From assembly GCA_023247055.1 (NCBI GenBank), contig JAHFHF010000006.1, positions 600-64,599 on the forward strand: DNA of 64,000 bases. The letters are read 5' to 3'. Below the pieces are notes generated by a model. That model did not search any database. It was not told the origin of the DNA and saw nothing but the letters and a program-made list of their open reading frames with translations. Source of the stretch: Candidatus Omnitrophota bacterium (GTDB lineage: Bacteria; Omnitrophota; Omnitrophia; Omnitrophales; Aquincolibacteriaceae). The position numbers and the translations under genes are program-made. Below, one piece after another: positions 1 through 64,000 of the stretch (within the stretch, counting starts at the first letter, position 1; each line of letters begins with the position of its first letter).

Positions 1-3000
1 CCGAACTCCGAAACGATTCCGGGCGAACTTGTGGTCAACGGCCGCTATTACCAATTTACTTCTTCGGGATACAATGACGAAGCGGCGGGCATGGAGGGCG
101 GATGGGCGCCCGATCCAAACTCCTACCGGTTTGTGGATGCCGCCGGCCAGCCGGATGAATATGGACAGCTGCCGGTCTATACTTCAAATCCGCAAACAGG
201 GCTGGTCACCCTGGCCGACGGCTTGACTTACCGCGTGGTTGCGCCGGATTCCGCCATCTCCGGCGGGGAACACGTGCTGCTGGTGGAAGTGCGCCAGGAC
301 AAACAAATCATCAATCCCTTCCAGCAAAGCGGCTGGAAGGCGCTCGAGATCGATGGCTTGTCTTATCTGGTTGAACTGCGCGATCAAAAACCTTATGCCC
401 TGCATCGCGAGGGCGTGACCGCGCTTTTTGATGAAGACGGCCGCATCGTGATCGACGGCAAGACTTACCGCATCGGCATGAACGACTATTATTACAATTC
501 AGTCAAAACGGGAGAGGATGGCCGGGTGCAGGCGGTTTATACCGATGAGCGCATCACCTACGGCAGTTATCCGAATATCCGCGTCTTTCCGCCCAATGCC
601 TTTACGGCCGCCGACCGCGAGTACTTCCTGGTGGAAGATTTGGGACAGGCGGAACTTTACCGCACCGAACATCATTGGCTCCCGGCGGGATATACCCAGA
701 TTTTTGGCAAAACCACGCTCAAGATTGATTACGAAGATTACGAAATTGCCAAAGTCACGCACCGCGGCTTGGAACTCGTGGCGTTTATCAAATTGGATGC
801 GCTTGGCAATCGCACGCAGATGGCCTATTACATGCGGCCCGACGATCAGGAAATCACGCTCTCCGGCGGACGCCGCTTCCGCATTGTGGGCGATGTGACC
901 GGTATTCAAAAATCGGCAACGCTGGTGGAGATCAGCCGCGCGGGCACGCTCGGCAGTGTGAGCGGTTTTGAAATCCTGAACGGTGAAAAACTGACGCCGG
1001 GTTACGGCTATACGCATGCAAGTCAGCCGCTGGCCGTCGTGCTGGACGGCGTGACCTATGAAGTCTTTCCGCGCAATGCCGCGGGCCGTATTTTTGCCAC
1101 CGACGGCCGCACGGTGTTGGCCAGCGATGCGGACGGTATTTTGAATATCAACGGCCGCCGTTTCCGTCTCGAAGAAGAAGCCGTCACGTATGAGATTTTC
1201 AACGATACGCGTGTTTCGCATTTGAACTACTACCTGACGGAAGACTCCTCGCGCCGCTACCGGTTGAATTCCGTGAGCGATGCGGCGGGCCTGCCGCAGG
1301 CTGAACTTCAGCCGCTGACAAGCGACGGAAAATATTTTGCCGCGGCGGACGAAGTCACGCTTTTTGACGGCCTGCGCTACCGCATGACGGTGAGCGCCAA
1401 AGGTGAGGTTTCCTTGACCGAAATCAATCCGCCGGCGCGGCGCGAAGCGCTGGTCAGCAAAGCTCCCGGTTTTCAATTGACGCGTCTGGCGCTGGAAGCG
1501 GGTGATGGTTCCGCCGGCCGCAATCAACTTGTGGCCAGCCGCCAGACGGGCGCCGTGACAACCGATACGCTGGGCCTGCGGCATACTCCGCTTGTGATTT
1601 TGGGCGAATCCTATGAAGTCGTGGAGCGCAGCGACGGCACGTTTGAATTTTATCCGGCCCGCAAAGTCAATGTGGATGAAATTCTGGCAGCTTCCGGCAT
1701 TCAAAATGCGGCGGAAGCCAATGCCTGGCGTGCGGCGGTGGAGAAGAGTTTCACGGCCCAAAGCGTTGCCAGCGATAAGATTTCGGGGACGGTTGTTCTG
1801 GACGGCATCCGCTACCGTATTTCCAAACATCCTGTGACCGGTGCGGTCGAACTTGCCGGCCGGGATACACGGGTCAAGCCGGACGCCGATCCCTTGGTGG
1901 CCGGCAGTATTGATTTGACGGTCTGGAAAAATACGGACGGGAGTTATTCGGTTTACTGGCCGCTGGACAAGACCGTTTACCGCGGCGACGGCGTCACCAA
2001 GACGGTGGTGCTGGGCAACTCGGTCAAATACGATATCGCTGAAGACGCGGCGGGACGCATCACGCTCAAGGAATCCACCCGGGTGATTGCCGCGCCGCCT
2101 TTGGCCCAGGTCATCGAAGTCTATGGCCGCAATTACGGTGTGGTCAAAAATACGGACGGCACGTACGCCTTCTATGACGGTTTGTATACGTATAAGTCGG
2201 ATGCCCAGGGCAAGACCGTGAAACTGGGCGAATTTATTCTGGCCAGCTATGACGACTACCTCAAACGCAGCGCCGAAGGGACGCTGGATGAAGTCCGCGG
2301 CGTGCTCTATGACATTGAGGCCGACGGACCGAACCATGTCCGCCTGGTTGATCATCGTGAGGCTGAAACCAAGATACAGCTTTTTGAATTGGGCGGGCGT
2401 TTCTATACCAGCGGCCGTGATACGGTTGGCCGTATCACGCTCAGTGACTATGCCACGGGGGAAATCGTCCTGCGTATTCCGCAGGGCACGAGCGAACTTG
2501 TCTTTGACCGCGAGACCTATACGTTGAGCGTTGACAGTGTGACCGGTTTTATCCGCCTGGTTTCGAGCCAAAGCCAGAATGCCTCGCGTGACGCGCAGGT
2601 TTTGCGCCTGGGCGAGCAAATCTATCTGGCTTCGGCCATGGGTGACGGCCGTTTCCAGTTTTATCTGGACGGGCAGCCGTTTATTTCCCAGGCGGCGGCC
2701 GGACGCGTGACGCTGGGCGACGGCCTTGAATATCATGTGACCGCCGGCGCTGACGGCCGCATTCAGCTTGAGCAAAAATATATTGACGCCTTTTCCGAGG
2801 AACGCATGTCCATTCTGCTGGACGGCCAGATCTATGACATCCTGCACACCGGCAGCCACCGCTGGCGCTTTACGGATGCCGCGGGATTGTCTTTCGACAG
2901 CGATGCCGTAACGATGAAAGTCACAATCGGCACGCTTATGTATGACTTGGTCGAACATGCGGACGGCAGCGTCACCGCGATTGCTCAAAACGATATTTCG

Positions 3001-6000
3001 ACCTCGCTCATCCGCAAGGTGGTCAATATTGGCGGCCTGCTTTATGTGGTCACGCGCCAGACGGACGGCCGCTTTGCCTTTACGGCCGGCAATGTCACGG
3101 CTTATGCCGCGCTCTCCGGCCGGCTGGATCTCGATAAGGTCTTTACGGTCACGTTCAACGAAACCACCGGCCAGGTGCGCGTCACGGAAACGGTCGTGCG
3201 CCGCAGTGCGCCGGTCGAACTCCTCGAAATCAAACAGCCGTCGCTGACGCGCCGCATGACAGTTGCCGGAAAAACCTATGACCTGAAGTATGACCGCGTG
3301 GACATGCTTGAAACCAGTCTGACCGGCGCGGAAATTCACAAACAGCGGCCGCTTTTCCAGTTTACGGATGCGGGTTCGGGGACGGTCTATGAAAACCGCA
3401 CTTATAAATTCGGCGGGTCGGTCGGGGCCTGCTCCAACGAAGAGTGCGAGAGCCAGGATATTTTAAGCACGGACCGTAATCAATTTGCCATGGATCTGCC
3501 GGAGGCCACGTTGAAACTCGAGGATTGGCCGCGGGTCTTTGCCTTTACCATCATGATCGACGGCAAATCCTACCTGATGTCCGAGACCGAGGCGCACAAG
3601 CATACGTTCTTCAGCGAGGACAAGTATTACCACTCGTGGATCCAGCCGTGCGGCGAAAAGTGTATTCAGGAGTTTGTCGAACTGCCCGACGGCAAAGGCG
3701 GTTTTGTTAAATTCGAACTTTATTACAGCAACAAGTACTACGACGAACCGGCTTCACAGGCGGATTTTGTGGGTGACCGGCTGCTGGTGAGAATTGACGA
3801 TGCGGCCGGGGCGGCCGACATCCGCGTCATTCCCAAGATGGAAATTCCGACCGAGCCGGTGGAAACGTCGCAGTATTATCTGGCGGAACGTTCGGCGCAG
3901 GACGGCCGTTTGACCCTGCGTGAGGAAGCGACCGGGCGTGCGTATGAGGTCAAACAGCGCATTTCGATCGACGGCCGCAATTACGAGGCGTCCGTGGATA
4001 GCGCAGCCGGCAAAGTTTCGCTGACCGAAGAACACGCGGCCAGCACGCGGGTGCCGGGGCGGCTGGCCGTGCGCGTGGGCCGGGATGCCGCCGGTTACAG
4101 TTATGAACTCAAGACCGACGGCCGGTTTGAATTTTCCGACGGCATTCATACCTATTACAGCACGCGCGAAACCGGCCGGCCGCAGGTCATCTTGTCGGAT
4201 GGAAACGTCTACACCATCGCTTACAACGCCGAAACCCAGGAATTGGCGTTGACCGAGCGCTATGAAATTTCCACGCCGGCCGGAGCGGGCCGTTTGAATG
4301 TCGGCGGTACGGTGTTTACGTATACGATCCGCGCCGATGGCAGCGTGCGTTTGACGGCCGGTACGAAAACCTATGACAGCCAGGGTGAGATGGACCTTGT
4401 CTCGGCGCTCAAACAGCCCATTCAGTACAAACTGCGCGAAGGACAAACACTGCCGGCCGGAGAAACGTCCACGGTGCCGGGTTATAGCGGCTTACGCTGG
4501 GAAGACGCGGGTATGGGCGTGACCAAGCCCTATCTGGTGAAGTTTGATCCGGCGGCAGGAACGTATACCGTGCGTGAAAAACCGCTGCCGGTGGACCCGC
4601 AGGACTATGTGGCCATCCGCGGTTTTGCCAAGACCTTGCAGGAAATCAAAGCTGCCTACGGCGCTTTCGGCGACACGAGTGATATTTATGATGCTGAAAA
4701 TCTGAGTTCACTCAATTACGACCGGCTCTATGACGCGGAGTATGAGCACAACAGCCTGAGCGGCTACAACAGCCAGTTCCTGTCTAACTTCAATGCCTAT
4801 GAACTGACGCTGCGCACAGGCCTTGCGCCCTGGCAGGACAGCCCGGTGGCCCTGGTGGATTACCGGGACGGCGTGCCGGACAGCAGCCTTGTCGGCTCTC
4901 AGGCGAAACTCGCGGGCGCTTATGACATTCTCTTTGATACGCCCAACCATACGCCGGGCAGCAGTTATCTGCCGGTGCGCGAATTGCAGGTCTATCAGGA
5001 TGAACTGCGCATCATGCACCCCTGGATTAACGGCGTGGAGCGTGTGTTTGAACCGGTCTACAACGACAATGCGGGCATTAGCCTGGAAACCGGTCCGTTT
5101 GCGGTTTTTGCCGGTGATACGTCAACCAACTACCGCAACCGCGGCGTGACGCTGAATGGCAAAGCCTATGACGTGGCCATGGATCCTGTGACCAAGGCGC
5201 CGGTCTTTACGGAACTTTCGTCCTACCGCGCGGCGAATGCGGATGAAGACGTTCTGCTGGTCTACCACCTCAAGGATGCGGAAGGCAACGAAACCGGCGT
5301 GGAGTACAATTTATTCGATGCCACATTTACCGCGCTGGATGTTTTCAAAGGGGTGATTCAGGCCCGCGCCAAACTTGGCGAGGCCTATGACTATAAGAAC
5401 CCGGCCAATACCTGGGAGAAGTTGTCCCTGGCGGACATCGAGGCCCAAGCGCAGACATTCCAGTACAATGCCCTGACGCGCAACTTTACCCTGCATGGCG
5501 TCAACTACCGCGTGTTTGAACAGCCGGTGAGCGGCGAAGTTTCAATTCTGCGCGCGGGCGGTACTCCGCCTGTGGTGCTGAACGCTCTGAATACGATCGA
5601 ACACAATGACCGGCTGTATGAAATCCGCAGGAATGAAGACGGCCGTATCATCCTGACCAGCGATACGGGGGAAGAGTTCCCGAGCGATCCGGACGGACAG
5701 ACGCTCAGTATCGACGATTACCATTTCGATATCAGCCGTGATCCGCTGACGCAGGCCTGGAAACTGAAGGAGCAGAGGGTTGAAAGCTACTACGGCGATT
5801 TGGCCGTTGTGGATGAAACTTCAGACGGCGGCGGCCGCATCTCTGCCCATTTTCATTCCGTCGCCAATCCGGGCGTACCCCTTGGGTTTGAAGTGCCGGG
5901 TGCCGGAACCCAGGTTGAATTTTTGAATCAAGCCGTGATTGCCGGGCCGGACGGGCAGGAACATGGTTTATTTGTGTTCCGGATTGGCAGCAGTTTTGTG

Positions 6001-7140
6001 CTTTCTGACGGGCTTAACGGCGGTATTACACAAGTGCCGGATCAATACCGTCAGATTACGATCGACGGCCAGCGCTACCAGGTTCAGGTGTTTACGAACT
6101 CTTCGGGCCAGACCCTGGCGCGCATTGAAAAAGTGCTGCGTACCCTGGATTCCAAGCCAGGCGTGCGCGCGGACGGCAAACTGTATCAGGTGCAGGACAC
6201 GCCCGGCAGTTATACCGTTCAGGTTGGCGGCAGTAAGCGCAAAATTACATGGGTGATGGCCGTCTGTGCCGGCGCCATGTGCCGTGATGTGGACCCCACG
6301 CCGTCTTACCTGCCGTTGGAATTAGAATCCAATCCGTCGCGCAATACCATTACGCTCAACGACGGCATTGAACGGACGCTGGTCATTGATCCCGATGAAC
6401 CCACGAATGTGGATATCCTGCCGGATCAGATCACGAGTTTTGATCTGCCGGATTTGAAACTGGGTAAACGTTTCTTCTACAGCACGGTCCATGCGAACGG
6501 GTCAGTCACGCTGACTGAAACCTATAGCGCCGATCCGCAGACTTACATCTCCGATCCGCTGACGCGCGAAGTGACGATCAACGGAAGAGTGTGGAGCGTT
6601 CAGGTGGCGGGCGGCAAGGCCGTGCTTACGGCGCGGAACATCAAGGAAAGCAGCGCGCTGCCGGGAACTTATGCGGAAGTGGACGGCCGTATTTACCAGA
6701 TTGAAGCGGATGCCCAAAACCGCTGGGTTTTCAGCGACGTGTATCTGTCCGGCGTGGCTTTCACGAGCACAGCCGACGGCAAGAGCGTGACGATTCATGA
6801 GCATGTTTACGATATCAGCGCTGCAGCGGGTAAGGTTTCTCTGAAGGAGCAGCCGCGCTCCTATCCGGTGAAGGAAGATCACGTCATTCTGAACAGCCGC
6901 ATTTACAAGGTGCAGATCGTGCGCGATATCCTGGGGCTGGAACGCGCCTGGCTGTCGGACGGCACGAACCTGATGGTCTCCGGCGAATTTAAAGATGCGG
7001 ATGCGGTCAGCGGCGAAAACAAACAGGCGCGCGCCGAAGTCGTCATTGACGGTAAAACCTTCCTGGTTTCGATTGAGCGCGATCCGTCTATTTACAGCAC
7101 TTTGTCGGATGAATTCCTGATTGTGAAACAGATTAAGCCC
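1..7140 (+). repeat. Array of degenerate beta-hairpin repeats with core h-x-h-x-G-x-x-Y-x-h, then 3-6 residues, then (D)G-x-h-x-h. The period is variable, about 25-60 aa.
   Basis: Translation shows tens of units. Examples are EVTLFDGLRYRMTVSAKGEVSLTE, TVVLDGIRYRISKHPVTGAVELAG, RVTLGDGLEYHVTAGADGRIQLEQ, MSILLDGQIYDILHTGSHRWRF, EVTINGRVWSVQVAGGKAVLTA and EVVIDGKTFLVSIERDPS. Similarity is at the protein level only. The nucleotide sequence is not repetitive. Confidence 0.6.
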
Positions 7141-55100: not shown

Positions 55101-58100
55101 GATCGAAACGCCCTTTGCGCGTGTCACGCTGCGGCGCCATAATCCAGCCTGCGGCCTGGCGACGTGCCCTGAAGAAATGCGCGTTGATTCCGTCACGCTC
55201 TTTGCCACGGATGAAACCGGGGCCGTACGCGAGCAGGTGCTGATCCGGCCGCTCGATCCATCGGCTCTGCCGCTTTACGATTCTGTCGTCAATCTCATCA
55301 CGACTGAAAAAGGCGATTTGAGCGGCATTCTTACCAATGGTGCTTTTACATTGGCATCGCGGACCCTGTTTGACGGAGCGCGCCAATCCGAGCGTGTGAC
55401 GCAGGTCTGGCAGTTTGAGCCGCGCGAGACCCAACAGATCCAGAACCTGGCCGATCTGGTTCAAGCCGGCACAAGTCCGTTTAATTCATCGCTGGTCGGG
55501 CTGGATATTCTGCGGAATTTCTCTCTGGCCTCGCTGACCAGCTATTTTTATCACCCGGATAACAGCCTGGATTACACGGTGGGTACGCGTTTTCTGCGTC
55601 AGAACACCGGACCGGCTGAGACGATACGCACCGAATATGCCAAGGTCCGCGGCCAGAGCAAGATCGCCCGGACGATTGAAAATGATGGTGTTGAACACCG
55701 CTTTACCGAAGCCCTGTATTCCGAAACCGCCAATTTCACCTGGGGCCAGGATTTCGTTTTCACGGTGCGCGGTAAAAACAATAAAGATACCGCCTTTAAA
55801 TGCCATATCAATGCCGCTGGCGGCTGTGACGTTTCCGATCCTGTGACGGGCGCCATGATCGGCGTGATCAGTGACGGAGGCTTCTTTATCGCCTATACCG
55901 AAGACCGGGACGGCGACGGCCTGCTGGATGGCAGCGAAGATGCCAACGGCAACAACGTGCTGGATCCCGGCGAAGATACGCTGCCGTTCAACGGCGTCCT
56001 TGATCCGTCGGAAGATACCAACGGCAATGCGGCCCTCGATCAAAAGCGCTATCGCGTGCGCATCATTCATAACGGCAATCACGGAACACTGGTGCTGGAG
56101 GGGGATGAGGTCATCTCCGTGGCCCAGGCCGGCAGCCGCCTTGAAAGCCTGCAGGAAGAGCAGAGTTTCTACTTCACCTGGGGCCAGGACTTCGAGTTCA
56201 GTTATCTGTGGGAAAACGGAGTGCAGTCGCGTTTTAAATGCCATATCAACGTGGCCGGCGGCTGCGATGTGACCGATTTGCGCACCGGCGAATTCATGGG
56301 TAGTGTTGTCAATCTCGGCACTTTTACCTACGACGAAGACCGGCCGGCGCTTTTATTCCCGAACGGTAACGACCTGCTCGACCCAAGTGAAGATATCAAC
56401 AACAACGGCATCCTGGATCTTGGAGAAGACATCTTCGCGCCCATTGGCGTGCTGAACCTGGCGGAAGATATCAACCAAAACGGCCGCATCGATGTGCGCA
56501 ACTATACGCTCGATTTGCGCCAAGACGGCACGCGTGGCACGCTGATTTTACGCCGCAATGAAATCGTGCCGCGCATTTTTGAATCGGAGAACGTGACCAA
56601 TCAACTTCTACGCACGCGCAATAATACCAATTTCACGGCCACTTCCGAAGGCACGACCAGCTATACCGACTCTGAAGGCCGGCGTCTCAAGGCCGTCGAT
56701 GCTTTTGGCAATGTAACGCGTTACTTCTACCGCCGCGACCCGCTCAGCGGTGCGGTCTTGACCGACGTGCGCACGGGCCAGCCGCTCGAAACCTATGTCC
56801 TGGACGCCAATAACAATATTACTATTTTAGGTGCGGAAGGGGAGCGTCTGGCCTTCATCGATTTCTCGGCCCACATGGAAAAAGGCAGCCCGGTGCTCAA
56901 GACCGGCATTTACCAGGACATCCGGGTTTGGAACGAAACGACCATGACGCTGGATGTGGTCACGATCGATCAGAACATGCAGGGCCGGACCGATCTGCGT
57001 TATCTGGCGCGGCCCGATATTCTGACGAACCCAGCACTATGGTGGTTTAGTGATCCCGACCTGGACAGCACACTCCTCACTGCCGCGGAGCGGGCCGAAA
57101 CCATCAGCCCAGCCATACACTGGTTCGATTATGACCGCGATCCGGCCACGGGCCGCATCCGGCGCGGGGTGAACGGCGAACCCATGAAGATGATCGAACT
57201 TTTCTCCGAACGCCAAATGCCGCAGTACAAGACCGAGTACGGAGCCACGCATCGCGATGTGACTCAGCGTATGTACTATGAAGATGGCCGGTTAGTAGGC
57301 AACGACACCAAGATCCGTGACCCACAGGCGGAATTGGATACCACTCTGCAGAACACCTATCAAAAATACACGCATGTGCGGATGCGTATTGACGGCGTCT
57401 TTGAAATCGTGCGCAACAGCGAGCAGCAGGAGCAGGAGGACATGCTGGCCTGCGCGTCGTCACCGGCAGGGCCGTGTGATGTCACGTTCCGGCGCAATCA
57501 TGCAATCCGGCTGGCTTTTGACTCAGACACGGGTGCCTTATCTGGCCAGGGACTCAACAACAAGGCCAACCAGCAGTCGCTGGATCTAGGCAGTTTTGAT
57601 TTTGAATCTACGTATCTCGATCCGGACACACTCTATGTGAAACGCATGCGCCGCAGTAACATGGCCGCAAGCTTCCAGCCCGAAGTTTCCATGCTCTATA
57701 AACGCAATTGGCACGATGATGCGAACCATAATGGCCGGCAGGATCCCGGCGAAGGCGGCTCTTCAGGCTGGCGCGGGGCCGTTTGGGAACTCAAACAAAT
57801 TATCAATCCAAAAACGGGACCGGTTATGGTGAACATGCCTAACTCTGCTTATTCGTCCGGCGGCCAGGCGTATAACCGGCTTGTCCAACAAGGACCCACG
57901 GCATACAACCTCATAGGGGCTGCGCCGATAACTCTTGCTCCTCTTGCGGATGGTACGCCGGTTTATGCCCCGCCGACAGGGTGGGATATTGCCCCGTGGG
58001 GAGTGAACGCCTTAGAAGCAAACCGCACACTTCCGTTCTATCAGTATGTGCGAGCGCCGGTTTCTCTCTATGAAAAATACTACACTGAACAGACCAGCCG

Positions 58101-61100
58101 CATTTCCAGCATGCTGGCAGGAGGCTCCAACCTGCAAATGCTTTATCGCGGCAGCCTCGATTTGTATGCGGGGCTTGGTGCGGCCGGCGAAGATCAGCCC
58201 AATACGAATGCGGCCATCGCTGCTGGGAAGTTCCAATCTGGATTCGATTGGGACACGACCGGTTCCAATAGGCACGCGGGAACGGAGCGTAACCGCCTGA
58301 CCGGTGAAATCTTCCAGCGCCTGATCGGCGTCAATCCGGCGGCAAAAGACTATCAGCCGACTCTAAACCTGTACTTTACGGGTGAACAGACTATCGGCGC
58401 GCTCAATTTTGACATACCGTCTTACGAATATATCTGGAACCCGGTGACACTGCAGGTGGACCGCCTGCCACTCTCAATCAACGCCAATCTGAAAGTGATC
58501 GAAAAAGCCGACGTGGCTAGAGTCGACGGCGGTTTGTCCGACCGCGCTTTTGATACGCTCGACCAAAAAGACAATGCGCCGCCGCTGGAAGTCACCACCG
58601 AAATTATTAACCGCGAAGTCAACCTTCTGACCGAAACGCTCACCCGGTCGCTGGATGCAAAAAACCAAGCGATACGTTTTGCCGTCAACGCCCTGCTGAA
58701 AGGCGCGGATGGCTTAGGGACAACCACCGGCTTGCAGTTTTATGAAAACATGGAAGACCGCGGCGGCTACTATCAGGTTTACGAATTTCTCTTCACCGAC
58801 CAAATGCCGCCGGCCGCGGCTATCGACGAAGTCGCAGCGGCCTATAAAAAACTGGCATTGTCCAAAGGATTGTCGTCCGCCGGTCTGGCTGGTTTCCTGA
58901 AAAACCTTACGAATGCGGGCAGTGTGCGGACGGATAATCTGTCCGGCGGCGCGCAAAATGCGCGTCAGCAGGGCTATTCCAAGAGTTTGGCTGACAATAT
59001 CGTGAACACGATTGTGTATTCAGCGGCTGTCATGGCGACCAATATTTGGGGTGGTGGGGGCCTGGGCGCCGCTTCGATGGATGGCGCGCTGATCGCGCCG
59101 GAGGGCGATCTCATCACGCCGCGTTTCGACTCCTCTGACCAGACCAACCGGGGCATCGTCAACCCAATGATCGAAGACGGTGAACACCGCTACACGCTGA
59201 AACTTCTGAAGGCCTATTCCACCAGCTTGACGGAATTCGCCACGCAGTTTGATCCGCCGGTGGAAGCCGACGATTACCGCGCCAATCAGGAAGCCAAAGA
59301 AACGGGCCAGACCCCGGATCAGACGATTGACGAACTCATCCGCAACGACGTCGGGCTGACGCATACGATTGAGAATTACGTAGCAACCCGCATCCAGTCC
59401 GGACAAATTGCTGCCGTCAGTGCGCGCGACTTCCTTGAAGAGTATCTTTGGGAACTTGCTCCGACGACCGGGACGCAGCCCAAGAATCTGCACGTTGGCC
59501 GCGAAAAAGCGCGCGAGATGTTCTTTGAATTGCCTGAGCTCCTGCGGAAGTTCTACAGCGAGTCGCACGGGGCCAAGGCCGACAGCGAAGCGCTCGGATA
59601 TCTTGAAAGCCTGGTCAATTACCTTGTGCTGCAAAACGGAAATCCCGTGGGCAGTGACTTTAGCGGCTTGGAAATGAAAGACAAAATCAAGAAACTGGCC
59701 GAAGACCCCACGTACAGCATTGATTACGTTTACGATTCCTGGCTCTTTAAGGCGGTTGAGAAAATCATTGCGGCGACGCTGAATTACCAAAACGAGAAAC
59801 AGGAAGCCTTTAAGGATTTTTATAAGGAAGTGCTTTATACCAATCAATCGACGACCAGCCTTGGCGATGTCATGGGGCTTCTGACGCACAACATCGTCAC
59901 GACCGCCGCGATTGGCGGCACGGATACCCGCGTCGATGTACGGCCGCTTTTGGATGAAGTTAAAATGGAATACCGTGCTTTTATCACGGAGCGCCAGGAA
60001 GAAGCGAAGCGCACGGCCACCGAACTTTCGCTGCAGAGCCAGCAGCGGCATGTCTCGCTGGCCGGCGGCGACCGCGGCGCGCTTGAGGGTGATCTGGATG
60101 TCCTGGCTTATGATAAACGCGAAAAAGAACTGAAAGACTTGCGCGAATTTTTGGGTTGGAAGCCGGTGGCTAGCGGCGGTTACGAATTGCCGCTTCCCAC
60201 GGCCACGGCACCGGCTGACGACTGGGAAGATTACTGGGACCGTAAAAAGTTCACGGAAGGCTGGACCGAAGCTCCCAGCGCATTTCAAGAAGCCGCTCCG
60301 GCTGGCGAACTTTACATCCTTCCCACCAAAGCCGACAAGGCCCTGCCTGCGAGCCAATATGCCGCAGGCACGCTGGATAACTATGACTTCGGCCTTGAAA
60401 AACTTTTCCACAATACGCTTGATTCGATCCAGCTCTTGTCGGAACAGACCGTAGCCGGCCTCGAGCAGCTCAGCGCCGCCGAACCGCCCATTCCGATGAA
60501 GGACCTTGTGGGGATTGAGCCTGGCGCCGAAACGCCGCTCAATCAGCTTTTCGCCAAATACTTTACACCGGTTTGGGATAAGGGGCGTTTGGAATATAGC
60601 GGCAATATGACAGGCGATATGACGATCCGGCTTTCCAACATGGACAGCCTGACTAAAGACGTCCTGGCCTACGCCGAAAAAATCCTTAAAGACCCGAAGT
60701 CGGCGATTAACGATCTCGATTCTGGCCTGCTGGATTTTGAAGACATCTTTTCAAAATTGCGCGAGTTGGATAACTCCCTGGCCCTTTTCCACGAAACCGA
60801 GTTCAAACGTGTCTATGACAATAGCGTGCTGGTCTCAAGCGCCAACCCATTCGATCCGGCAGGCCTTGGCGATATCTATGATTTTGCCCATGCGCGCACC
60901 GTGCCCGTGGCGCAGGTCGATCATATGCTTGATTTTGTCAGTCAGCAGATGAACCGCTATTTGGATGTGACGCGCGTCTTTTTGGCCGGTTATAACCAGC
61001 TGCGTCAGTCATTTGGCCTGAACCAGGCTGCGGAAGAGCTGCGCTTTGATCTTGAGACCATGGATCTTGACAAAGGTTTGGACGAAATCCGCAAAGTGGA

Positions 61101-63999
61101 TCCGGGCCGCGCACGCGCGATTGAACAGTTGCGCAAAACGGCGGTGGAAATGCTCAGTTCCAATCAAGTTGTGTCCAAAGCCATGGCTTACGCCTCCGCC
61201 GCGCGGCATGTGATGCTGTCGGCGATGGCGCGCAATGATTTTTACAAACTGGCAAAAGAAAAAGACCAGAAGCTCTCCGACCTGGACCCGGCCAGCTATA
61301 TTACGCGCGATGCCCAGGGAAATCCGGTGTTAGGGACGCCGCCTTCAGGGCCTGTCTTTCTGCGGCCGGAGTTGAAATTCGATGAAGACGGCGAATACAT
61401 CCGCGATTTCAAGGAATTTATCCGCACGGAAGTGGCGCCGCTTGAGGCGGTGGTCAAACAGCATGTCGTGGAAGAAGCCGCGGCAGGCACGCCCACAAAT
61501 AACGCGGCGGCAGATACCCGGCTTGGTGATGTTACCAGCGACTATGCGCAAAAGGCCATTCTGACGAATGTGACTGAATCCAAAAACGTTTTCGAGGAAT
61601 ACGAACACAAGATTTATCTCGAGACCTATGCCACCAAGATCGGCACCGGCGGCATGCTGCTGGCGGATAAATTCACTGAATTGGAGCAAAAAGCCGCGGA
61701 ATGGCTGAATGCGGCGGCCATGTTGCGCGCCGAGGAAGGCGCGGCCGGCGAAGAGCGATTCCAACAGGCCGTACGTGCCATTCATGATTACAAGAATGCT
61801 TACCGCGATTATCTGGTGCGTTTCCTGCGCGGCGATACGTCAGAAATCTGGGGCAGTCCGTTTGCTCTGCCCTCGGGCGAGCCGGTCGAGATCCTTCAGC
61901 AAGGCAATTTCGGCATCCTGCACAATTTGAGCATGTACTTATCGAAGGACAAGATCTATCAAATTGCCGTCAGCCCGGCTAAAAAGGATGCGAATGGCTA
62001 TTTGTATTATCTCAAAAAAGATCCCATCACCGGATTGGATTTACCCGATGTGATGACCACAACGACGAACAACCGTCAATACGTCCTTGATACAACCGTG
62101 CTGGCGTTAACGGATGATCCGGCGACGCTGGGGTGGGATGAGACGCGCGGCTTTGGCGTCAAGGATGATAAGTTCTTGCCCTTTACCAAAGAACAAATAC
62201 TCAAGGGCGATGAGTCCGAGATGGTGATCGGCGAAGAAATGCGCCGCATGATGCAGGAGTATGACAAATGGTTTGACGAGGCCGTCGACGCCTACCGCGG
62301 CAGCATGTCGTATTACGAACTTAGTGTGGCGGATTTATCCGGCACTGTCACGGCGACGCCGGGTCTTGATCCTTCGGTCATTGCCATGCAAAACACGTTT
62401 AGCGATATCCTCAAAATGCATCTTGGAACGAACCCGCCGACGGCGACATTTGCAGGTATCACGTCGATCAAAAAGGAGTTTAACGACATCCATGATGAAG
62501 CGTGGGGTGTTTACGAGCAATTCCTTTTCGGCAGCGCGGCTGAAACCGACGGAGACGGCGCTCTGGAAAAATACAGAACTGAAGTGCAGGACGTGTATGA
62601 GGCCGTCAAGGGGCTGGATAAGAAAATTTCAAGTATCCGCCAGCTTGCCAAGGCTGAACCGGTGGCGCGCGAACTGGGCCGCAATATTTTTGAAACAGCC
62701 TTCAGTGTGATTCAGGATTTGGCTTCTGAAATGCAGCGTGAGATTTATAACTACAACCGTTCGGCGATTCTCAAGATTGGCGCGCAAGATAGCTTGAATG
62801 AGTTTTACGTTAAAAAAGTTCGCGCCATGACCGGCATGCTCAACCAACTCACTAATAATCAGTTTTCAAAATACTTTGGCCTGCCCCGGGATTGGAATAA
62901 GGCCATTTATGGCGGCTATTTTGGCCACGACTTTTTAGGGGCCCGGGATAACTGGCTGCGGGATGTGTTTGCCGTGCCGCTAGGGATTACGTACACAGGC
63001 ACCCAGGCCGATCAGGACGAAATTTTTACCGAAATCGGCATGCTTGTGCTTGATTCGCTGACCAATCATGTCTTTGAGCAGGGGACGACCGAGCAGGAAA
63101 TGACGCTCTTTGCCATGATGTCGTCGGTTTTTGGCGAAAGCATGGGGCCGATCAAATATTTTGATACGGAACTCGAGTTTGACAAGAAGATGAATTATCT
63201 GCGCCAGGGCGGCGACCCGGCGTCCGGTAAGCGCCTGACACCGCTGGAAGTTTTAAGTGAATGGTTTGAAGAAGGCTTCCTGACCGACTCTGAGTTTCTG
63301 CAGTTTACGGATGCGAAGTCAGCTTCCAAGACCCAGCCCCTGGAAAAAATCATCGCCACGCTCAAAAGCCAGACCGTTTTCGGTGAACCGCGTTTCAATC
63401 ATGTGATTGCGCCCAACGGTGCTGTGACGCCTGTCAATGGAACCTATGCGAAAAAGATGGAAGAAATCCGGCGCAAATATATTCTCGCCGGAAAAGTCCC
63501 GGCTAATGCGTGGCGTAACGCCGTGATGGGCGATCTGCATTATGCGCTCGGGACGCCTTCGGCGCCGGCGCCCACGGAAATCCGCAAAGACGGTACGCTG
63601 ATCAATAAATACCATTACACGGGTTTTAGCAGCGGAGAATATGGTTTGCTGGCCCTGGGCAGCCAGCTTTGTGAAGACGCTGTGAATCTGGCTTGCAACG
63701 ATTCAGCTCCGATTACCGGAGATTTAAACAATATATTCCAGGGGTTGGGACTTATTTTTAGCACGTTTGATGAGGCGTCGGGAAAATGGAATGCGCCCGC
63801 TTTCTTTGCGATGAATGCGAATACCGATTTTCTAGACTTAGTCGGGGGTTCAACGGGACTCTCGAATGGGGTCAAACATGGTTTGTTCGATATTAACCAT
63901 GCTCTTATGGATGGCGATTATCAATATTCTGCGACCGCCGATGTATCGGACAATAAAGTTCTCTCAAAGTTCCTCTATGGCGGTGGCGGCGGAGGCCTT
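1..63999 (+). CDS. Internal fragment of a single giant multidomain protein gene, at least 21,333 codons inside the window, with both the 5' and 3' ends outside it. The domain content suggests a secreted or cell-surface Ca-binding fibre/adhesin-like protein of unknown function.
   Basis: The frame starting at nt 1 contains no TAA, TAG or TGA. I translated it codon by codon from the start through about nt 24,500 and again across the helical region. I then spot-checked codons at about 25 sites through 63781-63999. The last codons read ...LSKFLYGGGGGGL and run off the window. The supplied M-to-stop ORF track contains no + strand ORF in this frame, as expected for a frame with no stop in the window. 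Codon usage shows strong GC3 bias (GCC/GCG, GGC, CTG, CGC, ACG, GTG). The translation contains several recognisable protein motifs: dockerin/EF-hand Ca-loops, DUF4214-like, C39-like, DUF1080-like and TSP3-like. Confidence 0.92.
7141..7300 (+). other. Gly/Asp/Glu/Gln-rich flexible linker (QGGGTSGMEGYESGDGDQDIFEELGLNDMPGGGGSEIPDWQQEQQWQFENP).
   Basis: Direct translation. This low-complexity stretch separates the first repeat block from the first beta-sandwich module. Confidence 0.5.
7981..8382 (+). other. Copy 1 of a roughly 100-aa beta-sandwich-like module, with a candidate carbohydrate-binding or jelly-roll fold. It is followed by a dockerin-like Ca-binding loop (ADLNGDGAVNDADEALLTARL, nt 8320-8382).
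   Basis: Translation reads NYRINLTADGFYQVGLSAAL...YVFHVFLDGHFYGDFY...LTPGEHDLKIVWDVPEFY, then D-L-N-G-D-G-A-V-N-D-A-D. The motif set G-x-Y-x-h-G-L-x-A, h-x-h-x-h-D-G and AG-x-H-x-h-x-h-x-W recurs in the other copies. Confidence 0.45.
9304..9366 (+). other. Isolated dockerin/EF-hand-like Ca-binding loop (LDVDKNGLADAQDFAAIQSRF).
   Basis: A 12-residue D-x-D-x-N-G-x-h-D-x-x-D loop followed by an amphipathic helix. Direct translation. Confidence 0.45.
9421..9846 (+). other. Copy 2 of the beta-sandwich-like module, followed by a Ca-loop (ADLNQDRRIDEKDQALFLDQ).
   Basis: Translation reads GFTYTFDAPSAGDFMLGLKTAML...FDFDVFVDGSAVRAGIL...LAAGTHQFRFVWSNPVP, then DLNQDRRIDEKD. Confidence 0.45.
10056..10120 (+). 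other. Dockerin/EF-hand-like Ca-binding loop (ADLNKDGLINEADDAFLAAALA).
   Basis: Direct translation. The loop matches the canonical D-h-N-x-D-G-x-h-N-x-x-D pattern. Confidence 0.5.
10201..11140 (+). other. Two divergent copies (3 and 4) of the beta-sandwich-like module, followed by a Ca-loop (ADLNADNYVNEADARILDTLRSRF).
   Basis: Translation shows AGDYRIGLSARSF...GRVYFKRTGDTAWDEERSVDFDLIADGNAHEYILSM, then KFRYAVVVDGVQRGTFDVPW...LNAGAHHIDIVEMNFYDYPY, then DLNADNYVNEAD. Confidence 0.4.
11761..11835 (+). other. Dockerin/EF-hand-like Ca-binding loop (VDPADLDGDGLVTFADQALMKASLG).
   Basis: Direct translation. Confidence 0.5.
11941..12260 (+). other. Copy 5 of the beta-sandwich-like module.
   Basis: Translation reads NYRMDFDLFADSAQPAGLAYYNIMLRA...WQLAVAVDGDDRGIVIIPA...LMANGAHTISLRWLNPRPG. 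It begins with the same NYR-h-x-h start as copy 1 and carries the same G-A-H-x-h-x-h-x-W motif. Confidence 0.45.
13150..13580 (+). other. Copy 6 of the beta-sandwich-like module, followed by a Ca-loop (DMDLNHNQSIDTGDETILAGLILAG).
   Basis: Translation reads YAVEVPEDGLYSVGLAARNFF...WQIEVDVYVDDEIYPRTSF...LTAGAHTIHFYVRDLYGEGDH, then DLNHNQSIDTGD. Confidence 0.45.
13581..18940 (+). repeat. Second and largest block of G-x-x-Y beta-hairpin repeats. It is interrupted by a Trp/Tyr/Thr/Asn-rich island of unknown fold at about 14,560-15,950.
   Basis: Many units by direct translation, for example VKVLRLAGKFYRVEISGTAVTLVS, SVVLDGVLYTIRMDTADSISLLG, QVILEGVRYSVEEQTGRVILSD, TIRISGKIYRLALAADGDWVLSE and AVFYINGTIYEVQYDETAGSFEV. 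The island contains GDQNYTWTWEMAAGG...YIWSIDWTQTGEFMKGWTFTLEDE...GYNAYGYWGPMYQYTHTYTVTIKNMTFEV. Confidence 0.55.
18946..19895 (+). repeat. Tandem array 1 of about 11 dockerin/EF-hand-type Ca-binding loops.
   Basis: Translation gives ADLDQNGEFNAEDARIL, KDINGDGLVDQQDIDAL, LDVNHDRKIDYRDANAL, FDINRDGL, LDVNNDGLVTHEDVTAL, FDINGDGKLDDL, ADVNRNGKVDDKDRSDL, ADINNDGRVDDRDWRTL and RDVNEDGRIDSKDSEVL. Each loop is followed by a short hydrophobic helix, as in dockerin segments. Confidence 0.6.
19900..21480 (+). repeat. Third block of G-x-x-Y beta-hairpin repeats.
   Basis: Examples are IVLDDERYVVSKNTEGAYVLTS, IVEIGEHIYDIYEDPDGKIRLVD, VIELEGKRYEVVNHFDGSYTFKT, RVKLDGIYYDIHEDPLTGHVQLAE, KVTIRGRVYDVIENSYSGSITLAE and VIELNGKNYFVRENTQDGITEFI. 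Confidence 0.55.
21514..22080 (+). other. Concanavalin A-like jelly-roll domain resembling DUF1080 / 3-keto-disaccharide hydrolase-like (PF06439-type) modules.
   Basis: Translation reads TWQDASIDF...GSWRIMAGRAESLVQ...GLVTETDFTLSVDLSFEI...YRMQIRVESGKITLAMNDQPLLEAQDHYFTGGAVALAGKGRDVQFDNIVLHH. The W-x-x-x-x-G, L-x-T-x-x-DF-x-L-x-h-x-h-x-F and terminal G-x-h-x-L-x-x-x-G-x-x-V-x-F-x-N-I-x-L motifs match the DUF1080 signature as I recall it. Confidence 0.5.
22165..24480 (+). repeat. Tandem array 2 of about 20 dockerin/EF-hand-type Ca-binding loops. It contains a Gly-rich linker at about 22,270-22,400.
   Basis: Translation gives DLDINRDEAFSQGD, VDITGDGRGDIADIKRI, ADVTGDGKVTDADWKAI, SDVTQDGVTDYRDVEAI, ADLNHNGALDAADVAQL, ADIDQDGLITPADLRIY, FDLTNDGVVDGSDEQRM, GDINRDGITDSRDLDLY, ADVNGDGLIDEKDLARA, FDLNQDGKVDDSDLAAL, HDVNADGAVNQTDVDLF, ADIDHSGAFDAGDVTNF, ADLTRDNVIDSADSAFL, ADIDQDNLIGARDYAGL, ADVTGDGKVDANDLKDL, ADVTRDRKVDVADVTKV and FDITGDRMVNALDEQAL. 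The linker reads GGTAGLGASGGEGEGSFAGGESAGGGAGMPAGGETGAGSG. Confidence 0.6.
24916..24957. repeat. Perfect 13-bp inverted repeat. The arms are cagggacaggtcc (24916-24928) and ggacctgtccctg (24945-24957), with a 16-nt loop. It lies in frame inside the CDS and encodes QGQVQPGTQPDLSL.
   Basis: Read directly. The two arms are exact reverse complements. Confidence 0.7.
26914..26994. repeat. Second copy of the same inverted repeat. The arms are cagggacaagtcc (26914-26926) and ggacctgtccctg (26982-26994), with one mismatch and a 55-nt loop. The loop contains a nested direct and inverted sub-repeat (gtccagttagccgctca / gtccagttagcggctca). It encodes QGQVQLAAQVPGTQGEVQLAAQMDLSL.
   Basis: Read directly. 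Confidence 0.65.
27400..27438. repeat. Third copy of the inverted repeat. The arms are agggacaggtcc (27401-27412) and ggacctgtccct (27426-27437), with a 13-nt loop. It encodes QGQVQTTQQDLSL.
   Basis: Read directly. A half-copy (gttcaaacaactcaggcg, encoding SVQTTQA) also occurs at about 30,014. Confidence 0.65.
32240..34440 (+). other. Extremely Ala-rich (with Ser/Thr/Leu/Gln) sub-region inside the helical domain. It includes short hydrophobic runs such as AAILAALVLGLLAASV.
   Basis: Translation reads ...AAAINAIIDKPAAAQAAADILAQFGTGISAVPGSDAAILAALVLGLLAASVEEPAASAALKAIIREAAAKAAAEAEMLGG...AAALAVLAAAYSAHTAQPAYSETTASVLASNINAFTAYRAY... Confidence 0.5.
34465..34650 (+). other. DUF4214-like segment.
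   Basis: Translation reads GKAVYEAYRDVLGRDPKGEELAVDLADVLAGKLTTADLKVRLLGSEEYRQTRALMERV. The x-x-Y-x-x-h-L-G-R-x-P-[DK]-x-x-G...L-x-x-G...h...h-x-x-S-x-E-Y pattern is characteristic of DUF4214 (PF13946), which is common in bacterial S-layer and Ca-binding exoproteins. Confidence 0.45.
34790..35215 (+). other. C39 peptidase-like domain, the papain-like fold of bacteriocin-processing peptidases. The catalytic Cys position is occupied by Phe (HFG instead of DCG), so it is probably non-proteolytic.
   Basis: Translation reads SLHFGISAFTALSFMLSQDSRLKTLDYEELARQTILSDILSGVLRADTRGELVLSAFALQNTAAHAGLELYGRRMTAEELPALKLPAIIHLDGDHFAVLEKADAENVTVREYTGDSFALSVAEFVKHWDGFVMSA. It aligns with the C39 consensus: Q-x-x-x-DCG-x-A-[CS]-L-x-M-h, then G-x-s-L, then L-P-x-I-x-h-x-x-x-HF-V-V-L, then I-x-D-P, then s-x-x-E-F-x-x-x-W-x-G-x-x-L. 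The His motif (GDHFAVL) is retained. The Cys is absent. Confidence 0.45.
36081..36402 (+). other. Cluster of 3-4 dockerin/EF-hand-like Ca-binding loops embedded in the helical region.
   Basis: Translation gives ADVNRDGSVTAADVTALNLA, DDINLDGVVDLLDKAIW, GDVDADSQLDSDDVSLFRSYL and NVDQDPAGLVDSSDVLAVSNYV. A further loop sits at 37,884-37,950 (DLDTDGDVDYDDLNVLKTRV). Confidence 0.45.
38260..38660 (+). other. Beta-rich island of unknown fold inside the helical region.
   Basis: Translation reads VAVSFAAPMPEFRVGTTTFKFPFHLRIGNEIFGMRAGDHTVTPEIMNQAFTFYKLYDVVDVTLPDGSIIGYNQPVTTLAAMNPFVSYYDIPTGEHRVNVGPITYRLDEGLTGLWLRLETEKDQ. Confidence 0.3.
42641..63999 (+). other. C-terminal-ward region of about 7,100 aa. 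It is non-repetitive, mixed alpha/beta, and rich in Trp, Tyr, Asn and Pro. It has sparse Cys residues that occur as closely spaced pairs. No recognised catalytic motif was found.
   Basis: Direct translation. Examples are NFKFNFKNDVIPAGFPIQNNTVYEWFPAPATPPAVTPKWYDLQAG and YHYRPGLVDLLDEVVGMGPLNP. Cys pairs include CQGPTVPPVC (~45,000), CFENLCNAGG (~48,615), CSDAEWIGRC (~49,105), CPAGSTDDEIDIDC (~49,420), CGGVNCPD (~50,665), CTSPNNCEP (~53,125), CGLATCPEE (~55,150) and CASSPAGPCD (~57,455). An EF-hand-like loop ADVNGDGYLGLETDPELMVW lies at 44,209-44,268. Confidence 0.5.
55720..56595 (+). repeat. Tandem duplication of a 146-codon module (copy 1 at 55,720-56,157, copy 2 at 56,158-56,595). The copies are 438 nt apart. 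Each has a FTWGQDF/KCHINxAGGCDV core followed by thrombospondin-type-3-like Asp/Asn-rich Ca-binding repeats.
   Basis: Nucleotide-level direct repeats: ttcacctggggccaggatttc at 55,735 matches ttcacctggggccaggacttc at 56,173, and tttaaatgccatatcaatgccgctggcggctgtgacgtttccgat at 55,795 matches tttaaatgccatatcaacgtggccggcggctgcgatgtgaccgat at 56,233. Protein copy 1 reads TANFTWGQDFVFTVRGKNNKDTAFKCHINAAGGCDVSDPVTGAMIGVISDGGFFIAYTEDRDGDGLLDGSEDANGNNVLDPGEDTLPFNGVLDPSEDTNGNAALDQKRYRVRIIHNGNHGTLVLEGDEVI. Copy 2 reads FYFTWGQDFEFSYLWENGVQSRFKCHINVAGGCDVTDLRTGEFMGSVVNLGTFTYDEDRPALLFPNGNDLLDPSEDINNNGILDLGEDIFAPIGVLNLAEDINQNGRIDVRNYTLDLRQDGTRGTLILRRNEIV. Confidence 0.6.
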
Positions 64000-64000
64000 G

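Follow-up and report, generated by a model that had tools for sequence, protein, structure and literature searches.

A single stop-free reading frame spans the locus

The 64,000-nt stretch of contig JAHFHF010000006.1 analysed here, referred to below as the window, is occupied by one stop-free reading frame of 21,333 codons (1..63999, + strand). This frame constitutes an internal slice of a giant gene, with both start and stop located outside the window, as judged from stop counts, a chance estimate, codon usage and the ratio of nonsynonymous to synonymous substitution rates (dN/dS) relative to an orthologous contig, L001, described below. Residue numbers given as aa refer to the translation of this frame. 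Computed translation of frame +1, read from nt 1, revealed no TAA, TAG or TGA in any of the 21,333 codons, as the initial annotation of this DNA had claimed. The remaining five frames are interrupted by 221, 752, 862, 902 and 1,095 stops, with 2,964 nt as their longest uninterrupted run. On the basis of mononucleotide composition, 809 stops would be expected in frame +1 (ln P(no stop) = −825), and the conservative estimate, which uses the frame-specific (position-specific) composition, still predicts 470 stops (ln P(no stop) = −476). The chance figure of ~e^-600 put forward initially is thus of the right order of magnitude, while the accompanying GC content of ~58% is to be corrected to a measured 56.9%, with values of 0.63/0.43/0.65 at the first, second and third codon positions (GC1/GC2/GC3).

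The coding character of the frame was further studied via its codon usage and its divergence from L001. The codon bias expected of a coding frame, named as a check in the initial annotation, is indeed present: when the window is divided into 16 tiles of 4 kb, codon usage in frame 1 of each tile correlates with that of the rest of the window at r = 0.80–0.95, versus r ≤ 0.22 for frames 2 and 3. As these high values extend over all 16 frame-1 tiles, the coding signal is uniform. Nei–Gojobori counts over window aa ~16,750–21,332 gave pS 0.69 and pN 0.16 relative to L001, corresponding to a dN/dS of ~0.09, and individual 500-codon tiles ranged from 0.06 to 0.15. Strong purifying selection is acting on exactly frame +1 over the part aligned with L001.

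The DNA contains no Ns and gave no tRNA or Rfam match. Only two tandem repeats, barely over threshold, were observed (top score 53), and dispersed DNA repeats reach 53 nt at most. Consequently, in the absence of both Ns and sizeable repeats, a collapsed or chimeric assembly is unlikely. The GC content does drop from ~58–62% to ~54% at ~42,000, the boundary between the stalk and the membrane-proximal part of the encoded protein, and remains there through to 64,000. Across this boundary GC3 changes only from ~0.66 to ~0.62 and codon usage is still correlated, and the shift is therefore attributable to amino-acid composition, not to foreign DNA.

Two further observations concern the strands. On the coding strand, G exceeds C in nearly all 2-kb bins of window 1–54,000 (positive GC skew), and the cumulative skew climbs steadily, which fits a leading-strand gene as reported for Omnitrophota genomes, where genes lie mostly on one strand per replichore. 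All listed open reading frames (ORFs) of at least 250 aa are located on the minus strand (499-3339 plus 14 others), in a frame exactly complementary to the sense codons, and are shadow ORFs of a high-GC3 gene. Their status as genes was rejected: the products, up to 946 aa in length, are Arg-rich, derive from the codon-aligned antisense frame and gave no Pfam match.

Collinear orthologues in independent assemblies

A scan of one genome per GTDB species returned L001 as the sole relative (76%). This contig, CAYMUZ010000199.1 of the metagenome-assembled genome (MAG) 'binchicken_co203_628', is 22.7 kb long, and 20.8 kb of it form a single open frame without a stop. The product is collinear with window aa 16,750–21,326 and displays 72.5% identity over 4,682 positions. 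Moreover, L001 extends 2,328 aa beyond the residue aligned to the window end, and its frame is still open where the contig ends. The gene is therefore at least ~23,700 aa long (23,661 for window and orthologue combined), in keeping with the earlier proposal of one real giant gene that is open at both ends and exceeds the window.

For the distal part of the protein, 1.84 billion representative proteins were searched exhaustively with HMMER; the query, window aa 5,321–6,310 (990 aa), is the only segment searched in this manner. Ten matches were obtained. The best of these, P0001 (MBI3306332.1, 5,283 aa, partial), and another, P0006 (MBI3307673.1, 2,523 aa, partial), originate from one MAG, GCA_016196555.1, labelled 'Candidatus Omnitrophica bacterium'. 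P0006 is collinear with window aa 824–3,241 at 39% identity, and P0001 with aa 3,778–9,130 at 28–38% identity. Directly upstream of P0001 on the same contig (L002, JACPXL010000010.1) lies an ORF of 524 aa that matches window aa 3,191–3,692, so that the two together span aa 3,191–9,130. The giant gene of this MAG is accordingly split by a frame change at L002 nt ~1,480–1,575, which, as far as the sequence indicates, may reflect a one-base error of the assembly or else a genuine disruption of the gene.

A protein of 5,013 aa from ENA (P0004) was rejected as a relative, as it is an Ig-like tandem-repeat adhesin that matches via 31 short stretches only. Metagenome contigs scanned with the transmembrane (TM) region of L001 and with the window–L001 alignment gave no match, and viral contigs likewise gave none. 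A word-index protein search with window aa 20,001–21,000, aa 6,680–7,180 and the L001 tail also returned no match, but these are weak negatives given that the tool misses divergent relatives: the search with aa 6,680–7,180 failed to recover P0001, which is present in the same collection and ~38% identical in this part by BLAST. Word-index negatives for divergent, repeat-rich queries are therefore not readable as absence.

In combination, the independent assemblies of two other organisms (three contigs) recover ~60% of the window protein with its order preserved. These alignments bear directly on the possibility that the stop-free frame is an assembly artefact, whether through chimeric joining or concatenation of several loci or through the collapse or expansion of a repeat array. 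Such an artefact could account for the GC change after 42 kb, and window aa 9,130–16,750 are not covered by an independent orthologous contig. However, 21,333 codons without a stop would not survive chimeric joining (ln P ≤ −476), all 16 tiles agree in codon usage, no DNA repeat above 53 nt is available to serve as a mis-join site, and the collinear stretches cross the main module boundaries. An artefactual origin is consequently regarded as exceedingly improbable, and the frame is treated below as one real gene.

Modular organisation of the encoded protein

The modular outline given in the initial annotation, with beta-hairpin repeats, calcium-loop arrays, a helical stalk of ~6,000 aa and a large C-terminal part, proved broadly right. 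The features are, in window coordinates:

106..22152, + strand: beta-repeat zone (aa 36–7,384), ~55 copies of a 60-aa all-beta repeat with the consensus LADQVLELGGRIYTVERDADGRFELTDGEETFRSDAATGRVTIDGKVYRISEDPAGAITL
3388..3720, + strand: cysteine-containing domain (aa ~1,130–1,240), read from the sequences and from collinear alignment; Cys pairs conserved in P0006
7828..8400, + strand: module 1, carbohydrate-binding module (CBM) 6/35-like beta sandwich plus C-terminal dockerin half (aa 2,610–2,800), from an alignment (A2) with the other four modules
9283..9885, + strand: module 2, dockerin half, CBM6/35-like beta sandwich, dockerin half (aa 3,095–3,295), from AlphaFold2 and Foldseek
10036..11160, + strand: module 3 (aa 3,346–3,720), organised like module 2, plus ~165 aa nested within it, from A2
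11749..12300, + strand: module 4 (aa 3,917–4,100), from A2
12433..12672, + strand: ILEI/PANDER-like domain (aa 4,145–4,224), Pfam PF15711, E = 4.5e-8, 33.9 bits against a curated cut-off of 27
13003..13605, + strand: module 5 (aa 4,335–4,535), from A2
18928..19950, + strand: dockerin/EF-hand calcium-loop array 1 (aa 6,310–6,650), Pfam Dockerin_1, E = 1.2e-25, and loop positions
21667..22071, + strand: weak DUF1080 / 3-keto-disaccharide-hydrolase-like (concanavalin-type) domain (aa 7,223–7,357), Pfam PF06439, E = 0.0017, 18.8 bits, under the cut-off of 26.8
22468..24450, + strand: dockerin/EF-hand calcium-loop array 2 (aa 7,490–8,150), Pfam Dockerin_1, E = 4e-28, EF-hand_7, E = 2e-10, EF-hand_1, E = 1e-8, and loop positions
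24448..42000, + strand: Ala/Leu-rich 'stalk' (aa ~8,150–14,000, ~5,850 aa), presumably alpha-helical from its composition
34957..35205, + strand: C39-like domain without catalytic Cys (Pfam match aa 11,653–11,735, whole domain ~aa 11,600–11,740), Pfam PF03412, E = 1.2e-10, profile positions 45–129
36055..36390, + strand: dockerin pair inside the stalk (aa 12,019–12,130), Pfam Dockerin_1, E = 7e-7, and loop positions
42001..63999, + strand: membrane-proximal part without family annotation (aa 14,001–21,333, ~7,300 aa), alternating beta-rich and helix-rich stretches
55813..56568, + strand: internal duplication (aa 18,605–18,705 and 18,751–18,856, 42% identical), from self-BLAST and DNA repeat families D1, D3 and D7

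The distal region is dominated by the 60-aa repeat. Its copies are 20–40% identical in protein and display no repetition at the DNA level; this similarity, confined to the protein, indicates that the array is old. An AlphaFold2 model of four units, aligned with nine other arrays, reached a predicted local distance difference test score (pLDDT) of 79.8 and a predicted template-modelling score (pTM) of 0.36, with 6–7 strands per unit and linkers of low confidence. Foldseek returned only weak matches for this repeat (propeller, TcdA CROPs, teneurin and an Rhs effector; template-modelling score, TM-score, ≤ 0.22). The corresponding model of module 2, built like that of the repeat on a shallow alignment of internal repeats, is of moderate confidence (pLDDT 66.7) and predicts a beta sandwich with helices at either end; its top Foldseek matches in the PDB are CBM6, CBM35 and CBM36, with E ≥ 2e-6 and target-normalised TM-scores ≤ 0.60. 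The insertion in module 3 (window 10,400–10,900, aa ~3,470–3,640), missing from the other four copies, resembles a further beta-rich domain. The ILEI and DUF1080 families are also on record for P0001, the latter there as a 'faint' match. No Pfam or NCBIfam match was obtained for aa 1–3,000. In addition, a threefold repeat of ~90–100 aa was seen by eye in window 14,580–15,960 (aa ~4,860–5,320), with motifs of the type '...SG.F..PDG..Y.W...' and endings 'SYDNGT/SFDPQTN..TL.P'. It is conserved in P0001, and no family match beyond a weak DUF4136 (E = 0.02) was found for aa ~4,860–5,320.

An internal hidden Markov model predicted ~31 calcium-binding loops in the whole window protein, and Pfam Dockerin_1 matches occur in five tiles, with a best E of 4e-28. 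The stalk that follows array 2 is composed of 13–22% Ala and 11–14% Leu, with fractions of 0.46–0.61 for helix-forming residues and 0.06–0.10 for Pro and Gly together. Cys is completely absent from aa 7,001–14,000, the stalk included. An old duplication of ~510 aa is discernible within the stalk at window 38,700–41,700 (aa ~12,900–13,900), exemplified by aa 13,062–13,144 and 13,580–13,662, which are 34% identical; at the sequence level this suggests that the stalk may have grown through segment duplication.

The C39-like domain embedded in the stalk was also weakly matched by NCBIfam C39_FapD, and PDB alignments (3b79, 6mpz) locate the conserved C39 His in 'IIHLDGDHFAVL' ('DHF'). As there is no Cys in aa 7,001–14,000, the domain cannot be an active cysteine protease. 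An assignment as active peptidase C39 was rejected, with the His present and the catalytic Cys absent; by analogy, the domain would more probably bind a peptide partner than cleave one. A polyprotein, in which an embedded C39 peptidase domain cuts a giant precursor into smaller working proteins, is hence unlikely. The C39-family match itself would be expected of such a precursor, and the possibility has been raised for C39 and S8 domains in giant proteins by West-Roberts et al. (10.1101/2023.11.21.568195). Still, the lack of Cys makes the domain resemble the inactive C39-like domain of HlyB-type transporters, and no other peptidase family was found with Pfam or NCBIfam, an objection that covers cleavage in cis, not a protease acting in trans.

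The membrane-proximal part yielded no Pfam, NCBIfam or PDB-sequence match over aa 14,001–21,333, and conservation in L001 covers the C-terminal 4,577 aa. In each copy of the internal duplication, a Cys loop (CHINxAGGC) precedes acidic repeats of calcium type ('DPxED-N-NG-LD'), which are TSP3-like by eye. Likewise, comparison of the whole window protein with PDB sequences, in five overlapping pieces, gave no match at E ≤ 0.01.

Membrane topology

No credible TM helix was found by hydropathy scan in the 21,333 aa of the window, where only four weak peaks appeared, in Ala-rich or unremarkable segments. The same scan revealed 12 strong hydrophobic helices in L001 aa 5,235–5,888, i.e. ~630–1,280 aa past the window end, followed by at least 1,040 further residues. 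This TM cluster is thus observed in the orthologue, not on the window's own contig. Nothing was found in Pfam at E ≤ 0.1 for L001 aa 4,601–6,933.

A cytoplasmic location, with all 21,333 aa inside the cell as an internal scaffold, would resemble the 'TM-only' class of Nielsen and Lui; this class accounts, by prediction, for 46% of the long Omnitrophota proteins in their catalogue (10.64898/2026.06.07.730766), and with the N-terminus outside the window no signal peptide is seen. However, extracellular proteins are the typical setting of dockerin/EF-hand arrays, CBM-type folds (here the CBM6/35-like modules), ILEI and DUF1080, and the conserved paired Cys in a protein with a Cys content of only 0.14% suggest disulfides. 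From both features we infer that the TM-free part is located outside the cytoplasmic membrane. Domains characteristic of the cytoplasmic multi-enzyme giants, whether enzymatic or nucleotide-binding, were not detected either, and an internal scaffold appears distinctly improbable.

The TM cluster also argues against a released or loosely tethered toxin or adhesin, of the type I secretion system (T1SS; RTX, LapA, MARTX) or Rhs/YD-shell kind, that is not an integral membrane protein. Several features point in that direction: the acidic calcium-binding repeats, a C39-like domain (such domains normally work with T1SS substrates), the TcdA CROPs, teneurin and Rhs effector among the weak Foldseek matches of the beta repeat, and YD-like motifs seen by eye at aa ~18,880–19,000. 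T1SS substrates and Rhs toxins nevertheless lack a 12-helix TM cluster such as that found downstream in the same frame of the orthologue, no HemolysinCabind, RHS_repeat or toxin domain was detected with Pfam or NCBIfam, and the Foldseek TM-scores did not exceed 0.22. A secreted toxin or adhesin is therefore just as doubtful as an internal scaffold.

A number of specific assignments were tried and rejected. A nonribosomal peptide synthetase or polyketide synthase (NRPS/PKS) megasynthase was dismissed as the defining domains are absent. The same applies to an RTX/T1SS giant adhesin (no HemolysinCabind match, and a 12-helix TM cluster in the orthologue frame), a Rhs/YD-repeat toxin (no RHS_repeat in Pfam or NCBIfam over aa 18,000–19,500, and Foldseek TM-scores ≤ 0.12), a cellulosome component (no cohesin or glycoside hydrolase family in any tile) and an Archaeovorin (no glycosyltransferase, methyltransferase, NUDIX or HEAT match in Pfam, and no TM helix in the window).

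A membrane-rooted surface protein as the probable product

Considering the frame, its selection, its modules and the orthologous TM cluster, the window is best explained as an internal slice of one real giant gene of Omnitrophota type (Planctomycetes–Verrucomicrobia–Chlamydiae, PVC, group), with a membrane-rooted Dockerin-type giant surface protein as its product; we assign this reading a probability of roughly 0.7. The initial annotation had left the function of the protein undefined, and it can now be narrowed to a putative membrane-anchored, calcium- and glycan-binding surface fibre. By analogy, its most likely role would be that of a membrane-anchored, calcium-stiffened adhesin for cell-surface glycans of a host or prey cell.

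The proposed architecture proceeds outwards from the membrane. About a dozen TM helices just beyond the 3' end of the window would root the protein in the cytoplasmic membrane, with all 21,333 window residues on one side of it, most likely outside. Next to this root would stand the unannotated proximal part of 7,300 aa, followed by the Ala/Leu-rich helical stalk of ~5,850 aa carrying the inactive C39-like domain and the dockerin pair, and then by the two dockerin/EF-hand arrays, which may act as calcium-stiffened spacers. In the distal 7,400 aa, the ~55 repeats would form a row of small beta-barrel beads. This region would also hold the ILEI domain, a lectin fold resembling DUF1080 and the five CBM6/35-like lectin modules with their clamping dockerin halves. 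The whole could form a membrane-rooted fibre or coat, the tip of which offers many weak glycan-binding sites to a partner cell.

Several observations weigh against this assignment. Window aa 9,130–16,750 are without independent assembly support, and codon usage there matches the rest. The taxonomic link derives from NCBI MAG-bin labels of distant orthologues (~38% identity), and one short fragment (P0003) is labelled Planctomycetaceae. Glycan binding is suggested by the predicted fold by itself (pLDDT 66.7). Moreover, parts of the expected domain inventory were not recovered: TSP_3/PF18884 gave no Pfam match at E ≤ 1 in aa 18,560–18,900 or at E ≤ 0.01 in the rest of the window, discoidin and GNAT gave none in the window, and no SecA-like domain was found in the 1,040 aa past the L001 TM cluster, where the contig end cuts the tail short and such a domain may lie further downstream. 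In the model, the units of the beta repeat form small barrels of their own and not the antiparallel beta-helix tubule of ~1,500 aa reported for the family. Finally, none of the published Dockerin-type proteins of 30,000 aa or more was reached by the 990-aa repeat query, which by sequence sets the protein apart as a separate, rare lineage.

Taken further, the last point would place the window together with the MAGs of L001 and HYZ84 (Omnitrophica) in a separate, very rare giant-protein lineage, whose two largest parts, the mini-barrel repeat and the proximal region with its post-TM tail, lack recognisable relatives and represent new folds with a function beyond adhesion. We consider this rather unlikely. 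If true, the protein could for example be part of a contact-dependent machine, running from a membrane root via a stalk hundreds of nanometres long into a partner cell.

Attaching to other cells and attacking them are the roles presumed for the giant genes of ultra-small, host-dependent bacteria, and to our knowledge none of them has been biochemically characterised. With the membrane-rooted surface protein as the preferred reading, the present locus provides a well-supported, strongly conserved example of such a gene, with a dN/dS of ~0.09 across thousands of unannotated codons. It also gives the architecture a polarity, from membrane root via stalk and calcium arrays to a lectin-like tip. 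Three small modules appear suited to expression and testing: the 60-aa beta repeat, the cysteine-less C39-like domain and the CBM6/35-like unit with the dockerin halves that clamp it.

Comparison with known giant proteins

The giant proteins of Omnitrophota have been divided by West-Roberts et al. into Archaeovorins and Dockerin-type proteins (10.1101/2023.11.21.568195). According to the same study, the latter, exemplified by CAILPI010000004_73, are characterised by dockerin, EF-hand and TSP3 repeats together with ILEI, DUF1080 and C39-like domains, by an N-terminal bulk without TM helices and a C-terminal membrane anchor, and by a repeated CBM35-like barrel flanked by dockerin helices (the 'ladder') (10.1101/2023.11.21.568195). 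An antiparallel beta-helix tubule of ~1,500 aa and SecA_DEAD/SecA preprotein-binding domains past the TM anchor are further reported family features. Omnitrophota giants are also reported to be flanked by a type II secretion system (T2SS)/Tad-like locus upstream and by PilZ or sugar-import genes downstream; the window and every related contig are confined to the gene itself, and the Omnitrophica labels of the nearest relatives connect it only indirectly with an Omnitrophota genome. A dockerin-bearing class (class 3) was also distinguished among 916 long proteins by Nielsen and Lui in 2026 (10.64898/2026.06.07.730766).

With respect to size, proteins of at least 10,000 aa (10–30 thousand residues, kaa) are classified as 'large' and those of at least 30,000 aa as 'giant'. 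The initial annotation had placed the gene among the largest known in prokaryotes, a ranking that is not supported. The window contributes 21,333 codons and the L001 overhang raises the minimum to 23,661 aa, which puts the protein in the 'large' class, while 'giant' size would call for further residues beyond both open ends. For comparison, a protein of 85,804 aa has been reported in the earlier literature on giant proteins (West-Roberts 2023; Seymour 2023; Nielsen and Lui 2026), and the catalogue of Nielsen and Lui contains 5,761 proteins of at least 10 kaa, the longest being 147,155 aa (10.64898/2026.06.07.730766).

Like the window protein, the Archaeovorin of Velamenicoccus archaeovorus LiM (39,678 aa, 42 TM helices) is a giant, membrane-associated Omnitrophota protein, proposed to act on the surface of a target cell, and C39-like domains occur in this class also. 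However, an Archaeovorin combines many enzyme and related domains (glycosyltransferases, methyltransferases, NUDIX, HEAT) with scattered TM helices, none of which is found in the window. Giant RTX/T1SS adhesins and the giants of Chlorobium chlorochromatii (36,805 and ~25,000 aa) are similarly very long, repeat-rich, calcium-dependent proteins of the cell surface or of adhesion that are connected with cell–cell associations. In contrast to these, the window is devoid of RTX, haemagglutinin and fibronectin repeats, and its orthologue bears a polytopic membrane anchor instead of the C-terminal secretion signal of RTX/T1SS adhesins. The C39-like domain of HlyB-type ABC transporters shares with the domain in the stalk the C39 fold, a retained His, the absence of the catalytic Cys and a function that is likely binding, not cleavage; the window domain is however part of a giant structural protein, with no ABC transporter fused to it.

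A further counterpart is the giant ORF of Aquinicolibacterium lacustre (class Omnitrophia), which encodes nine dockerins and was read as an adhesin by Seymour et al. in 2023 (PMC10066038). Both proteins contain multiple dockerins (PF00404 in A. lacustre), and the adhesin there was assigned to a host-dependent nanobacterium. They differ, as far as the published description allows a comparison, in that nine non-cellulosomal dockerins stand against ~31 calcium loops and additional module types in the window. The adhesion or cell-surface role proposed for these Omnitrophota giant ORFs (10.1101/2023.11.21.568195; PMC10066038) agrees with the role favoured here.

The window protein differs from the published Dockerin-type proteins in several respects. 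TSP3, discoidin and GNAT were not detected by Pfam in the window, and no SecA-like domain was found in the available part of the orthologue. The dominant repeat, a predicted small beta barrel of 60 aa, is almost without relatives (10 matches in 1.84 billion). The Ala-rich stalk of ~5,850 aa and the unannotated proximal part of 7,300 aa have not been described for the published examples, and the C39-like domain sits mid-stalk and is devoid of Cys.

Conversely, in common with this class, the window protein is encoded by a giant single ORF and contains many dockerin/EF-hand repeats, along with ILEI (above cut-off), DUF1080 (below cut-off) and C39-like domains. Five predicted CBM35-like modules are flanked by dockerin helices (one of them modelled, at pLDDT 66.7), a TM-free bulk is combined with a TM anchor near the C-terminus, known from the orthologue L001, and the nearest relatives are found in MAGs labelled Omnitrophica. 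The initial suggestion of a previously undescribed system consequently does not hold, as the architecture is that of the Dockerin-type giants of Omnitrophota (10.1101/2023.11.21.568195) and a nine-dockerin giant ORF was already on record (PMC10066038). Both the phenomenon and the architecture class were described in 2022–2026, in tiny Omnitrophota with a predatory or episymbiotic way of life, and no new category is opened by this locus. Judged from its sequence features, the window protein appears to be a sequence-divergent member of the already described Dockerin-type giants, as the greater part of their defining traits accessible to testing recur in it.

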